Source: a virus
Taxonomy: Duplodnaviria > Heunggongvirae > Uroviricota > Caudoviricetes
DNA: 5,535 nucleotides
Reading direction: 5' to 3' (one strand)
IMG/VR virus record: IMGVR_UViG_2585427727_000006
The translations under genes and the position numbers were made by a program. Below the pieces are notes generated by a model. That model saw only the letters and a program-made list of their open reading frames with translations. It had not been told where the DNA came from and made no database searches. This document shows positions 3-5,535 of the stretch, one piece after another. The first letter of the stretch is position 1; each line of letters begins with the position of its first letter.

Positions 3-680
3 TTCGTGGTAAGCACGCCGGAGGGGGAAAGATATTTCCCCTGCGTGAATATCTCCGGTGAGCCGGAGGCGTATTTCCGTATGTCGCCGGAAGACTGGCT
101 GCAGGCAGAAATGCAGGGTGAGATTGTGGCGCTGGTCCACAGCCACCCCGGTGGTCTGCCCTGGCTGAGTGAGGCCGACCGGCGGCTGCAGGTGCAGAGT
201 GATTTGCCGTGGTGGCTGGTCTGCCGGGGGACGATTCATAAGTTCCGCTGTGTGCCGCATCTCACCGGGCGTCGCTTTGAGCACGGGGTGACGGACTGTT
301 ACACGCTGTTCCGGGATGCTTATCATTTGGTGGGGATTGAGATGCAGGATTTTCATCGCGGGGATGACTGGTGGCGTAACGGTCAGAATCTCTATCTTGA
401 CAATATGGAGGCGACTGGTTTTTACCGTGTCGCACTGACAGAGGCGCAGCCTGGCGACGTGCTGCTGTGCTGCTTTGGTTCATCGGTGCCGAATCATGCC
501 GCCATTTACTGTGGTGACGGCGAGCTGCTGCACCATATTCCTGAACAACTGAGCAAACGAGAGAGGTATACCGACAAATGGCAGCGACGCACACACTCCC
601 TCTGGCGTCACCGGGCATGGCGCGCATCTGCCTTTACGGGGATTTACAACGATTTGGCCGCCGCATCGACCTTCGTGTGA
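3..680 (+). CDS. K: Tail tip assembly protein K (JAB/MPN plus NlpC/P60 domains), probably 5'-partial
   Basis: Reading frame is open from the window edge to TGA at 678-680. The translation carries a JAMM-type motif HSHPGGLPWLSEAD (HxH-x7-S-x2-D, nt ~138-182) and a downstream Cys/His arrangement typical of NlpC/P60 (GVTDCYTLF ... VPNHAAIYCG ... HH). Sequence is recognisably lambda gpK from memory. An internal ATG at 81 preceded by GGAGG (66-70) would give a 199-aa product, the length I recall for annotated lambda K, but that leaves too little sequence upstream of the HxH for a complete JAB domain, so the true start is probably upstream of the window. Confidence 0.9.
   Translation, partial: FVVSTPEGERYFPCVNISGEPEAYFRMSPEDWLQAEMQGEIVALVHSHPGGLPWLSEADRRLQVQSDLPWWLVCRGTIHKFRCVPHLTGRRFEHGVTDCYTLFRDAYHLVGIEMQDFHRGDDWWRNGQNLYLDNMEATGFYRVALTEAQPGDVLLCCFGSSVPNHAAIYCGDGELLHHIPEQLSKRERYTDKWQRRTHSLWRHRAWRASAFTGIYNDLAAASTFV
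561..566 (+). promoter_or_regulatory. Putative ribosome binding site for gene I (GAGAGG)
   Basis: Purine-rich GAGAGG lies 11 nt upstream of the I start codon at 578, inside the K coding sequence. Confidence 0.4.
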
Positions 681-1249
681 AAACGGGGGCTGAAGCCATT
701 CGGGCGCTGGCCACACAGCTCCCGGCGTTTCGTCAGAAACTGAGCGACGGCTGGTATCAGGTACGGATTTCCGGGCGGGACGTCAGCACGTCCGGATTGA
801 CGGCGCAGTTACATGAGGTTCTGCCTGACGGCGCTGTGATTCATATTGTTCCCAGAGTCGCCGGGGCCAAGTCAGGGGGCGTATTCCAGATTGTTCTGGG
901 GGCTGCCGCCATTGCCGGATCATTCTTTACTGCCGGAGCCACCCTTGCAGCATGGGGGGCAGCCATTGGGGCCGGTGGTATGACCGGTATCCTGTTTTCT
1001 CTCGGTGCCAGTATGGTACTTGGTGGTGTGGCGCAGATGCTGGCACCGAAAGCCAGAACTCCCCGTACACAGACAACGGATAACGGTAAGCAGAACACCT
1101 ATTTCTCCTCACTGGATAACATGGTTGCCCAGGGCAATGTTCTGCCTGTTCTGTACGGTGAAATGCGCGTGGGGTCGCGGGTGGCTTCTCAGGAGATCAG
1201 CACGGCAGACGAAGGGGATGGTGGTCAGGTTGTCGTGATTGGCCGCTGA
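578..1249 (+). CDS. I: Tail tip assembly protein I (ubiquitin-like N-terminal domain, Gly/Ala-rich hydrophobic C-terminal segment)
   Basis: 223-aa ORF from ATG 578 to TGA 1247-1249. It overlaps the 3' end of K by 103 nt in a different frame, as I recall for lambda K/I. Protein is recognisably lambda gpI from memory. Residues ~100-157 (nt ~875-1048) form a long Gly/Ala-rich hydrophobic stretch (GGVFQIVLGAAAIAGSFFTAGATLAAWGAAIGAGGMTGILFSLGASMVLGGVAQMLAP). Confidence 0.92.
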   Translation: MAATHTLPLASPGMARICLYGDLQRFGRRIDLRVKTGAEAIRALATQLPAFRQKLSDGWYQVRISGRDVSTSGLTAQLHEVLPDGAVIHIVPRVAGAKSGGVFQIVLGAAAIAGSFFTAGATLAAWGAAIGAGGMTGILFSLGASMVLGGVAQMLAPKARTPRTQTTDNGKQNTYFSSLDNMVAQGNVLPVLYGEMRVGSRVASQEISTADEGDGGQVVVIGR

Positions 1250-1309: not shown

Positions 1310-4300
1310 ATGGGTAAAGGCAGCAGTAAGGGGCATACCCCGCGCGAAGCGAAGGACAACCTGAAGTCCACGCAGCTGCTGAGTGTGATCGATGCCATCA
1401 GCGAAGGGCCGGTTGAAGGTCCGGTGGATGGATTAAAAAGCGTGCTGCTGAACAGTACGCCGGTGCTGGACAGTGAGGGGAATACCAATATCTCCGGCGT
1501 CACGGTGGTGTTCCGGGCAGGTGAGCAGGAGCAGACACCGCCGGAGGGGTTTGAATCCTCCGGCTCCGAGACGGTGCTGGGTACGGAAGTGAAATACGAC
1601 ACGCCGATCACCCGCACCATCACGTCGGCAAACATCGACCGTCTGCGCTTTACCTTCGGTGTGCAGGCACTGGTGGAAACCACCTCAAAGGGTGACAGGA
1701 ATCCGTCGGAAGTCCGCCTGCTGGTTCAGATACAACGTAACGGTGGCTGGGTGACGGAAAAAGACATCACCATTAAGGGCAAAACCACGTCGCAGTATCT
1801 GGCCTCGGTGGTGGTGGATAACCTGCCGCCACGCCCGTTTAATATCCGGATGCGCAGGATGACGCCGGACAGCACCACAGACCAGCTGCAGAACAAAACG
1901 CTCTGGTCGTCATACACCGAAATCATCGATGTGAAACAGTGCTACCCGAACACGGCACTGGTCGGCGTGCAGGTGGATTCGGAGCAGTTCGGCAGCCAGC
2001 AGGTGAGCCGTAATTATCATCTGCGCGGGCGTATTCTGCAGGTGCCGTCGAATTATAACCCGCAGACGCGGCAATACAGCGGTATCTGGGACGGAACGTT
2101 TAAACCGGCATACAGCAACAACATGGCCTGGTGTCTGTGGGATATGCTGACCCACCCGCGCTACGGCATGGGGAAACGTCTTGGTGCGGCGGATGTGGAT
2201 AAATGGGCGCTGTATGTCATCGGCCAGTACTGCGACCAGTCAGTGCCGGACGGCTTTGGCGGCACGGAGCCGCGCATCACCTGTAATGCGTACCTGACCA
2301 CACAGCGCAAGGCGTGGGATGTGCTCAGTGATTTCTGCTCGGCGATGCGCTGTATGCCGGTATGGAACGGGCAGACGCTGACGTTCGTGCAGGACCGACC
2401 ATCAGATAAGGTGTGGACCTATAACCGCAGTAATGTGGTGATGCCGGATGATGGCGCGCCGTTCCGCTACAGCTTCAGCGCCCTGAAGGACCGCCATAAT
2501 GCCGTTGAGGTGAACTGGATTGACCCGAACAACGGCTGGGAGACGGCGACAGAGCTCGTGGAGGATACGCAGGCCATTGCCCGTTACGGCCGTAACGTCA
2601 CGAAGATGGATGCCTTTGGCTGTACCAGTCGGGGGCAGGCACACCGCGCCGGGCTGTGGCTGATTAAAACGGAGCTGCTGGAAACGCAGACCGTGGACTT
2701 CAGCGTGGGTGCTGAAGGGCTTCGCCATGTACCGGGGGATGTCATTGAAATCTGCGATGATGACTATGCCGGTATCAGCATCGGTGGGCGTGTGCTGGCG
2801 GTGAACAGCCAGACCCGGACGCTGACGCTCGACCGTGAAATCACGCTGCCATCCTCCGGCACCACGCTGATAAGCCTGGTTGACGGGCAGGGGAATCCGG
2901 TCAGCGTGGAGGTCCAGTCCGTCACCGACGGTGTGAAGGTGAAAGTGAGCCGTGTTCCTGACGGCGTTGCCGGATACAGCGTGTGGGGGCTGAAGCTGCC
3001 GATGCTGCGCCAGCGCCTGTTCCGCTGTGTGAGTATCCGTGAGAACGATGACGGCACGTATGCCATCACTGCCGTGCAGCATGTACCGGAGAAAGAAGCC
3101 ATCGTGGATAACGGGGCGTACTTTGACGGCGACCAGAGCGGAACGGTGAACGGTGTCACGCCGCCCGCGGTGCAGCACCTGACTGCAGAAGTCACCGCAG
3201 ACAGCGGGGAATACCAGGTGCTGGCGCGCTGGGACACGCCGAAGGTGGTGAAGGGGGGGAGCTTTATGCTTCGCCTGACCGTGGCAGCGGATGACGGCAG
3301 TGAGCGGCTGGTCAGCACGGCCAGGACGACGGAAACCACATACCGCTTCAGGCAACTGGCGCTGGGGAACTACAAGCTGACAGTCCGGGCGGTAAATGCG
3401 TGGGGGCAGCAGGGGGATCCGGCGTCAGTATCGTTCCGGATTGCCGCACCGGCAGCGCCATCGCGGATTGAGCTGACGCCGGGCTATTTTCAGATAACCG
3501 CAACGCCGCATCTTGCCGTTTATGATCCGACGGTACAGTTTGAGTTCTGGTTCTCGGAAAAGCGGATTGCGGATATCAGGCAGGTTGAAGCCAGCGCGCG
3601 TTATCTTGGTACGGCGCTGTACTGGATAGCCGCCAGTATCAATATCAAACCGGGCCATGATTATTATTTTTACATTCGCAGTGTGAACACCGTTGGCAAA
3701 TCGGCATTTGTGGAGGCTGTTGGCCATCCGAGTGATGATGCATCCGGCTATCTGGATTTTTTCAAAGGAGAGATAGGGAAAACCCATCTGGCTCAGGAGT
3801 TGTGGACGCAGATTGATAACGGTCAGCTTGCGCCTGACCTGGCTGAAATCAGGACGTCCATTACGGATGTCAGCAATGAAATCACGCAGACCGTCAATAA
3901 GAAACTGGAAGACCAGAGTGCAGCGATCCAGCAGATACAGAAGGTTCAGGTTGATACAAATAATAACCTGAACAGCATGTGGGCTGTGAAGCTGCAGCAG
4001 ATGCAGGACGGACGCCTTTATATCGCGGGTATTGGTGCCGGTATTGAGAATACCCCTGACGGTATGCAGAGTCAGGTGCTGCTGGCGGCGGACAGGATTG
4101 CGATGATTAATCCTGCGAATGGCAATACAAAGCCGATGTTTGTTGGTCAGGGCGATCAGATATTTATGAATGAAGTGTTCCTGAAATATCTGACGGCTCC
4201 CACCATTACCAGTGGTGGCAGTCCTCCGGTATTTTCCCTGACACCGGACGGAAAGCTGACCGCTAAAAATGCGGATATCAGTGGTAGTGTGAATGCGAAC

Positions 4301-4807
4301 TCAGGAACGCTCAACAATGTCACGATTAACCAGAACTGTACGATTAAGGGCATGCTGGAGGCGACTCAGGTCAGAGGTGACTTCGTTAAAGCTGTATCCA
4401 AATCATTTCCGAAACAGGCTGGTACGTGGGGTAACACGGAAACACCAAACGGGACGGTTACAGTCACCATCAGCGATGATCATAACTTTGACCGTCAAAT
4501 CATTATTCCGCCCATTATCTTTAACGGAATAGCGTATAGCGATCCGGGAAGTGGTAATAACCCGGGAGGTACAAGATACACGGGTTATGGTTTTGAAGTT
4601 CGCAAAAACGGTGTATTAATCGCATCCAGAGAAACTAAAGGGGCCATTCCCGGTAGCTACAGTGCGGTTATTGATATGCCGAGTGGCAGGGGAAGCGTCA
4701 CTCTGGAGTTTAAGGTTTTCCATAAAGGCAATCAGTGGGCAGGTAATATCACCGACTGTACGGTGATTGTGACCAAAAAAGCCGCTTCCGGCATCAGTAT
4801 TCGTTGA
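1310..4807 (+). CDS. J: Host specificity protein J (central tail fiber / tail tip attachment protein), 1165 aa
   Basis: Single uninterrupted 3498-nt ORF from ATG 1310 to TGA 4805-4807. The protein is recognisably lambda gpJ-like over most of its length, including fibronectin-III-like repeats in the central part (aa ~620-800). The 61-nt I-J spacing matches what I recall for lambda. The C-terminal ~160 aa are related to but clearly diverged from the lambda receptor-binding region as I recall it, and the protein is ~33 aa longer than lambda J (1132 aa). Confidence 0.95.
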
Positions 4808-4828
4808 AATTGTTATAACCCATATAAG

Positions 4829-4852
4829 GGCACCAGAAATGGTGCCTTTTTT
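4829..4852 (+). terminator. Putative intrinsic terminator downstream of J
   Basis: Perfect 6-bp GC-rich stem GGCACC (4829-4834) / GGTGCC (4841-4846) with loop AGAAAT, immediately followed by TTTTTTATT (4847 onward). Lies 22 nt after the J stop codon. Confidence 0.6.
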
Positions 4853-4865
4853 ATTGCAGAAAAGC

Positions 4866-4871
4866 GAGAGG
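4866..4871 (+). promoter_or_regulatory. Putative ribosome binding site for lom (GAGAGG)
   Basis: GAGAGG lies 5 nt upstream of the ATG at 4877. Confidence 0.5.
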
Positions 4872-4876
4872 TAATT

Positions 4877-5476
4877 ATGCGTAAACTTTATGCCGCCATT
4901 TTGTCCGCAGCCATTTGTCTGGCCGTATCCGGTGCGCCTGCATGGGCATCTGAACATCAGTCCACGCTGAGCGCGGGGTATCTTCATGCCTTGACGAACG
5001 TTCCCGGCAGCGATGATCTTAACGGGATTAACGTGAAATACCGTTATGAGTTTACGGACACACTGGGGCTGGTGACGTCATTCAGCTATGCAGGAGACAA
5101 GAATCGCCAGCTTACCCGTTACAGCGATACCCGCTGGCATGAAGATTCCGTGCGTAACCGCTGGTTCAGCGTGATGGCGGGGCCGTCTGTGCGCGTGAAT
5201 GAATGGTTCAGCGCGTATGCGATGGCGGGTATGGCTTACAGCCGTGTTTCGACTTTCTCCGGAGATTATCTTCGCGTAACTGACAACAAGGGGAAAAAGC
5301 ACGATGTGCTGACCGGAAGTGATGACGGTCGCCACAGCAACACGTCTCTGGCGTGGGGGGCTGGCGTGCAGTTTAACCCGACCGAATCCGTGGCCATTGA
5401 TATTGCTTATGAAGGCTCCGGCAGTGGTGACTGGCGCACTGACGGTTTCATCGTGGGTGTCGGTTATAAATTCTGA
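4877..5476 (+). CDS. lom: Lom-family outer membrane beta-barrel protein (Ail/Lom/OmpX/PagC family)
   Basis: 199-aa ORF from ATG 4877 to TGA 5474-5476. N-terminal signal peptide [24 protein letters not shown] with an AxA cleavage site. Alternating hydrophobic beta-strand pattern and a C-terminus ...[23 protein letters not shown] ending in aromatic-x-aromatic, typical of OM beta-barrels and matching the lambda Lom C-terminus as I recall it. Position directly downstream of J matches lambda gene order. Confidence 0.92.
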
Positions 5477-5502
5477 TTAGCCAGGTAACACAGTGTTATG
5501 AC

Positions 5503-5530
5503 AGCCCGCCGGTTCAGGCGGGCTTTTTTG
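5503..5530 (+). terminator. Putative intrinsic terminator downstream of lom
   Basis: 8-bp stem AGCCCGCC (5503-5510) / GGCGGGCT (5517-5524) with loop GGTTCA, followed by a T-run (5524-5529). Lies 27 nt after the lom stop codon. Confidence 0.7.
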
Positions 5531-5535
5531 TGGGG

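Follow-up and report, generated by a model that had tools for sequence, protein, structure and literature searches.

The lom gene, which lies between the tail-tip gene J and the side tail fibre gene stf in lambdoid prophages, raises the question of what the variable unit at this position consists of. The boundaries of that unit bear on whether the Lom protein serves the host, through adhesion, or the phage, through exclusion, and a unit that carries no promoter brings into focus a question of long standing, namely where the lom transcripts of lysogens begin. The locus was examined in a window of 5,535 nucleotides, which is the whole stretch of DNA analysed (IMG/VR record IMGVR_UViG_2585427727_000006, Caudoviricetes). 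The initial annotation of this window had described lom as a self-contained, moron-like cassette bracketed by two intrinsic terminators.

The window represents the tail-tip end of a prophage of the lambdoid type. The J product matched six J-specific or phage-tail Pfam domains above their cut-offs, and the lambda J entry in the PDB with an E value of 0. In related phages the sequence that follows the terminal GTGGGG is TGAATATG, leading into stf, and the stf ATG of these relatives falls 5 nt past the end of the window. What lies between J and stf is lom, an optional accessory gene of a lambdoid E. coli prophage that encodes an outer-membrane β-barrel of the Ail/Lom/OmpX type. The encoded protein matched the Pfam family Ail_Lom (PF06316) over its full length, residues 1–199 aligning to profile positions 1–199 (E = 6e-120; score 398.7 bits, cut-off 23), and the 'Lom outer membrane protein' group PHROG 108 at 1e-109. 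In a HMMER search of the PDB the match to lambda Lom (9wso) had an E value of 4e-49, and those to OmpX and Ail had E values of approximately 1e-17 to 1e-18. The 9wso entry is the solved structure of lambda Lom and contains two Lom chains next to other chains; J gave no match to it.

Inspection of the translation by eye revealed a Sec-type signal at the N-terminus, in which a hydrophobic core comes after MRK and precedes AWA and SE on either side of the cleavage position, so that the signal peptide likely comprises residues 1–24. The C-terminus, read in the same way, ends in the aromatic motif GYKF expected of a β-signal. HMMER alignments of Lom to the solved OmpX, Ail and lambda Lom chains placed the turns consistently. 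An AF2 model of Lom contained eight main strands, at low confidence (mean pLDDT 53) and from a shallow alignment, and from this model the strand pattern alone was used, alongside the alignment to OmpX and Ail. No credible family match was found for the minus-strand open reading frames at 4616–4987 and 5078–5335. The coordinates of the features in the window are given in Table 1.

Table 1. Positions of genes, signals and boundaries in the 5,535-nucleotide window.
Feature	Positions	Strand	Basis or remark
K	6–680		Open reading frame in the window
I	578–1249		Open reading frame in the window
J, tail tip attachment/host specificity protein, 1165 aa	1310–4807	+	Open reading frame list; stop TGA at 4805–4807
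Motif TTATAACCC	4813–4821	+	Between the J stop and hairpin 1
Hairpin 1 with T-run TTTTTTATT, intrinsic-terminator-like	4826–4855	+	Scan, fold, compensatory variants, phage 434 annotation, lom-less phages
lom indel unit, ~674 nt: RBS, lom and terminator 2	4856–5529	+	Occupied compared with empty sites L119, L120 and L121; right end ambiguous by 1 nt
Shine-Dalgarno-like GAGAGGT	4866–4872	+	4–5 nt before the lom ATG; GAGAGG core at 4866–4871
lom, 199 aa, precursor of an Ail/Lom-family 8-stranded outer-membrane β-barrel	4877–5476	+	Open reading frame list
Direct repeat pair TGGTTCAGCG, 10 nt each	5162–5171 and 5204–5213	+	Within lom; flanked segment deleted or duplicated in some database variants
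Block conserved with lambda: last 25–28 lom codons, spacer, terminator 2, start of stf RBS	5390–5535	+	Sliding identity
Hairpin 2 with T-run, intrinsic-terminator-like, ending the lom unit	5503–5529	+	Scan, fold, terminator annotation in phage 434
GTGGGG, start of the stf ribosome-binding region	5530–5535	+	In relatives GTGGGGTGAATATGGCAGTA comes next, leading into the side tail fibre gene

The signals flanking lom were assessed by pattern scans, folding and comparison with related loci. Over the whole window the scan gave five terminator-like matches against 4.1 ± 1.8 in shuffled sequences, which is not above chance, so the support for the two hairpins next to lom comes from fold energy and conservation. 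Hairpin 1 spans 4826–4849, approximately 20 nt past the J stop, and consists of a 10-bp stem closed by a GAAA loop and followed by the T-run. Its G-C core begins at 4829, in agreement with the hairpin that the initial annotation had placed 22 nt after J, and it folds at −15.6 kcal/mol (z = −3.7), with 0 of 200 shuffles folding as well. Hairpin 2 spans 5503–5524 and forms 8 bp, 7 of them G-C, followed by TTTTTTG; it lies 26 nt past the lom stop and folds at about −18 kcal/mol (z = −2.6), consistent with the second terminator annotated just after lom. A search of Rfam returned nothing at gathering score, and a weak Trp_leader match merely reflects the terminator.

Among 80 IMG/VR loci that share the lom allele of the window, hairpin 1 had the stem GGCACC/GGTGCC, GGCGTC/GACGCC or GGCGCC/GGCGCC, and no change was seen in its T-run, in the RBS or in the distance to the lom ATG. 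Across 17 distinct variants the pairing was kept in 93% of cells, compared to 36–60% when the partners were slid, and two pairs showed double compensatory changes (GC to AU and CG to UA, in either direction), giving a covariation score that was reached by 0 of 500 shuffles. Hairpin 2 was nearly invariant in the 80 loci, and is for that reason uninformative about compensatory change, save for one G-U pair in the lambda copy, which also has changes in the loop. Each hairpin is a G+C-rich stem-loop with a U-run directly after it, and both are thus predicted to act as intrinsic terminators. The RBS that the initial annotation had assigned to lom, with the core GAGAGG ending 5 nt before the ATG, showed no variation in the 80 loci; it is conserved in lambda and annotated in phage 434. 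Between the J stop and hairpin 1, the motif TTATAACCC was kept, with small variants, behind different J C-termini and at sites that lack lom, and is absent in lambda.

Phages in which the two flanks adjoin were found by searching with the end of J, lom and the start of stf. In PhiR11_1_star, Lambda_ev245 and 3W the spacer behind the J stop is that of the window, hairpin 1 comes next, and TTTTTTATT then runs directly into TGTGGAGTGAATATG, which is the start of stf. At the occupied junction of the window TTTTTTATT is instead followed by GCAGAAAAGCGAGAGGTAATTATG, then by lom, and then by GGCGGGCTTTTTT, which abuts GTGGGG. The exact empty junction was present in 86 IMG/VR contigs, with stf downstream in all 86, J upstream in 76 and no lom within 3 kb in 85, and the occupied junction in at least 120. 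HK97 likewise has J followed by stf with no lom. The claim that lom is an accessory gene inserted between J and stf is thus upheld by relatives with an identical J-hairpin-stf junction and no lom.

Because the phages that lack lom carry hairpin 1, this hairpin is the resident terminator of the J-stf backbone and lies outside the lom indel. The variable unit sits exactly between the T-run of the resident terminator and the stf RBS, which leaves 21 nt of the unit ahead of the lom ATG and no room for a promoter. The picture of a self-contained cassette bracketed by two terminators of its own was therefore not borne out: the upstream terminator belongs to the backbone and the DNA that comes and goes consists of lom with its RBS and the terminator behind it. 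What the comparison establishes is a discrete accessory indel; that this indel is also a self-contained transcription unit could not be demonstrated. The lom-bearing and lom-less sites may have arisen by gain of lom through insertion, or by its loss through deletion between the two T-runs, and the J-lom-stf junction appears to be recombination-prone.

Several loci in the comparison were rearranged or damaged. One (L245:3154-6405) contained J, lom, a repeated C-terminal fragment of J, a second lom and stf in succession, and another (L204:612-2630) contained lom, a stub of stf, a fragment of J and then an empty junction with stf. In two Shigella flexneri chromosomes (L093 and L108) lom was broken by frameshifts or stops and the flanking hairpins were kept. 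In a further locus (L066:95-1441) an IS4-family transposase gene was inserted in the left arm of hairpin 1, parting lom from J and destroying the upstream terminator. The deviating upstream context of this locus had been considered as a sign of cassette mobility and was rejected as such, as the difference is the transposase gene inside hairpin 1.

The lom-less relatives bear also on whether Lom might be a component of the virion or of tail assembly. The position between J and stf is the one observation that speaks for such a role. It is opposed by the Sec-type signal peptide, by the full-length match to an outer-membrane barrel family, by the absence of lom from close relatives with the same J-stf junction, and by the dispensability of lambda lom for plaque formation (PMC10695390); these together rule out a virion role for practical purposes, and we regard it as extremely improbable, in line with the initial annotation, which took lom for a candidate lysogenic-conversion factor and not for a virion component.

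No sigma-70-like site was found near lom by a consensus scan, and a PWM scan of 4550–4880 gave nothing usable, its best candidate before the ATG being placed such that transcripts would start inside lom. Both scans may miss promoters that depend on activators or alternative sigma factors and those of the extended −10 type. A candidate site of a non-consensus promoter lies around the conserved TGTTATAAC at 4811–4819, and the conserved TTATAACCC, with TG two bases upstream (4811–4821), could be a weak extended −10 element. However, TTATAACCC occurs also at sites that lack lom, and hairpin 1 with its T-run would lie immediately in the path of any transcript begun at this motif. The base composition of lom was not deviant, with a GC content of 54.7% compared to 55.9% for J and 56.0% for the window, and a GC3 of 59.5% compared to 66% for J.

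The moron architecture proposed for lom consequently holds in two respects and fails in two others. The gene separates, as additional DNA, two genes that adjoin in related phages, and it has its own downstream factor-independent terminator, hairpin 2 and its T6 lying within the indel. A promoter of its own was not recognised by the consensus and PWM scans, and its base composition is not unlike that of its neighbours.

That lom is nevertheless a complete and self-contained moron, which has a promoter, an RBS and a terminator of its own, is transcribed in the lysogen independently of the late operon and acts as a lysogenic-conversion factor in adhesion or serum resistance, is possible but rather doubtful. 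The discrete presence or absence of a unit with its own RBS and terminator is consistent with it, as are the membership of Lom in the Ail/Lom family and the possible extended −10 element. The literature on lambda also contributes: in PMC7067206 and PMC1151598 lom and bor are listed as lambda genes expressed in the lysogen, and PMC3594210, the review that popularised morons, lists lambda Lom among moron products as a prophage-expressed protein and cites a reported link to adhesion. Against it stand the 21 nt ahead of the ATG, the lack of a sigma-70-like match, the occurrence of TTATAACCC at lom-less sites, the unremarkable GC content and one array study in which lom was undetected in lysogens (PMC2147009). 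If lambda lysogens do contain lom transcripts or protein, as PMC1151598 and PMC7067206 report, then some promoter exists. Since the cassette has no recognisable promoter, any lysogenic start must be weak or non-consensus, and must lie outside the cassette or overlap it.

The reading that we consider likely is that lom belongs to a promoterless accessory unit of ~674 nt, composed of RBS, lom and terminator, which lies behind the resident J terminator and encodes a product of the host surface and not of the virion. In lambda, Q-modified RNA polymerase passes the terminators of the late operon. By analogy, during lytic growth a Q-antiterminated polymerase from the late promoter would read through both hairpins, so that lom and the downstream stf/tfa would be co-transcribed with the tail genes, and Lom would be exported by Sec and inserted in the outer membrane, as expected from lambda. 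A mere 11 nt separate the T-run of terminator 2 from the start of stf, so late transcription must pass both hairpins for side tail fibres to be made. Co-transcription with the tail genes agrees with the strong rise of lambda Lom late in infection that is reported in PMC12366544. In a repressed prophage the two terminators would, if the lambda model holds, insulate lom by stopping stray transcripts, and any lysogenic expression would then depend on a promoter that is weak or departs from the consensus and that lies outside the cassette or overlaps it.

The same boundaries would also suit a gene that is no autonomous conversion moron but rides in the late operon without a promoter and is selected for a lytic role, for example a change in the outer membrane of the dying cell that limits unproductive adsorption by progeny or related phages, with lysogenic expression being merely leaky. 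This fits an indel that has no promoter and lies between a terminator T-run and the stf RBS, and it fits the blocking of lambda-vir by lambda Lom; we nonetheless judge it to be unlikely. A similarly low probability is given to the proposal that Lom is an outer-membrane protein serving the phage, in lytic growth or in the lysogen, by cutting adsorption or entry of related phages, either as superinfection exclusion or as protection of progeny against adsorption to lysing cells, with adhesion being secondary. The promoterless cassette does lie in sense orientation inside the late operon, and in a 2025 study (PMC12366544) plasmid-expressed lambda Lom, besides its late rise, gave strong defence against lambda-vir and not against T7. 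However, lambda lysogens with native levels of Lom were unprotected from lambda-vir (PMC12366544), Lom matched none of the PADLOC defence models, and many related phages have no lom.

Co-variation of Lom with the receptor-binding domain of J, which would suit receptor-matched exclusion and was suggested by the place of lom next to the receptor-binding end of J, was considered and rejected. The same lom allele (96–100% amino acid identity) was found behind at least three unrelated C-terminal receptor-binding types of J, with the junctions in the spacer, which argues against receptor matching. As Lom and J do not co-vary, a phage-serving role in the lytic cycle is possible but would not be receptor-matched.

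When the window was compared with lambda, lambda lom (NP_040601; PDB id. 9wso) was found at the same position between J and stf, with the same RBS core and with a hairpin and T-run between J and lom. The upstream hairpin of lambda differs in sequence from hairpin 1 and is the weaker of the two (z = −0.5). Terminator 2 is homologous in the two phages, 55 of 59 downstream non-coding nucleotides being identical and the four changes all falling in the terminator loop and stem. In a sliding comparison the identity was 92–100% from position 1 to ~3750, about 50% from 3750 to 5390, and 87–100% from 5391 to the end, so that the divergent block extends from approximately residue 814 of J, in its C-terminal third, through residue 171 of Lom. 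Within J the comparison is mosaic, the identity of >92% falling to 19–75% after ~3750 with an island of 94% at 4201–4300, and J is 1165 residues long compared to 1132 in lambda. A short patch of 79% identity was also seen in K, at 401–500.

The two Lom proteins share 47% amino acid identity overall, and loop L1 of lambda Lom is longer by an 8-residue insertion. The initial annotation had described the protein as differing from lambda Lom through most of its N-terminal two thirds; it is indeed divergent, but over residues 1–171 of 199, or ~86% of the protein. The shared C-terminus had been attributed to barrel strands. The last 25 residues are identical to those of lambda, but the shared end includes the extracellular loop L4 (EGSGSGDW) as well as strands, and is part of a block of DNA that continues through the terminator. 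In the alignment the sharp boundary near residue 171 is the start of this conserved block. Five synonymous differences separate the 25 identical codons, which indicates that purifying selection also acts on the Lom C-terminus, and very recent recombination was rejected as the sole cause of the shared end on the same grounds.

Diversification of surface-exposed loops, also proposed in that annotation, was partly supported. The topology was assigned heuristically, with the periplasmic turns taken from the OmpX/Ail alignment and the low-confidence AF2 model, and ten residues on each side of a turn counted as membrane strand. On this heuristic topology the identity to lambda over residues 28–171 was 57% in the inferred strands and 26% in the inferred extracellular segments (Fisher p = 4e-4). 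Among Lom proteins that are 70–99% identical the variability was highest in the signal peptide, L1 and L2, but L3 and L4 were conserved, and the boundary of divergence from lambda coincides with that of the DNA block. All four combinations of signal-peptide type and L2 type occur, which indicates intragenic recombination in lom. Four chimeric Lom proteins were observed with a lambda-like signal peptide and L1, including the 8-residue insertion; in three (P0068, P0070 and P0072) these are carried on a body of the window type, and in one (L094:1501-2124) they are joined to a lambda-like body.

A further source of variation is the pair of TGGTTCAGCG repeats within lom, which encode the motif WFS..MAG / WFS..MAG. 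In-frame deletions of 14 or 16 residues at these repeats were present in 25 of 120 database Lom clusters, and duplications of 14 or 16 residues in 4 of the 120; among IMG/VR loci the 185-residue form was found in 1 of 112. Such changes would take away or double most of strand β-4. The length variants reflect either real slippage or artefacts in the assembly of a multi-copy gene.

The lom region is identical (100%) in prophages of E. coli O166:H15, and a match was present in 4733 of 5426 complete E. coli genomes (87%), with a median of two copies. The gene ranks with the commonest accessory genes that E. coli prophages carry and with the best known of lambdoid phages, and the import of the present locus goes little beyond its correct annotation. 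A lambda-identical Lom was also found on low-coverage contigs, some of them ~48.4 kb long, in assemblies from the unrelated genera Neobacillus, Kitasatospora, Leeuwenhoekiella, Pseudomonas, Shewanella, Bradyrhizobium and Paenibacillus (L095-L106), and these are almost certainly lambda DNA contaminating the assemblies.

The features that the initial annotation described are all present and lom was correctly identified, but they are already known, being annotated in phage 434, and lambda Lom has been cited as moron-encoded; the useful refinement is that the variable unit is a promoterless RBS, lom and terminator and that the upstream terminator is backbone. The morons of HK97 and HK022 (Juhala et al., 2000; reviewed in PMC3594210) resemble lom in being DNA added between genes that adjoin in relatives, with a factor-independent terminator downstream and a product directed at the host cell and not at the virion. 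They differ from lom, in which no promoter belonging to the gene can be recognised and the base composition does not deviate. The closest protein relatives are the 8-stranded barrels of the Ail (Yersinia), OmpX (E. coli) and PagC type (PF06316/PF13505). The family HMM covers Lom over its full length, and the periplasmic turns and C-terminal strand of the solved OmpX and Ail chains align with those of Lom, whereas the extracellular hairpins L2 and L3 are longer in Lom. Unlike lom, the genes of the Ail/OmpX/PagC type are chromosomal or plasmid-borne and have their own regulated promoters. The closest known locus is that of phage 434 and the lambda h434 hybrids (OL657226, OM418627), with 98.8% nucleotide identity over positions 4780–5535 (756 nt). 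Phage 434 has a J of 1137 residues compared to 1165 in the window, and the last 1.4 kb of J are 85–92% identical between the two. Near lom the two phages are separated by a few point differences, and phage 434 has the same order of J, terminator, RBS, lom, terminator and stf, with both terminators and the RBS publicly annotated.
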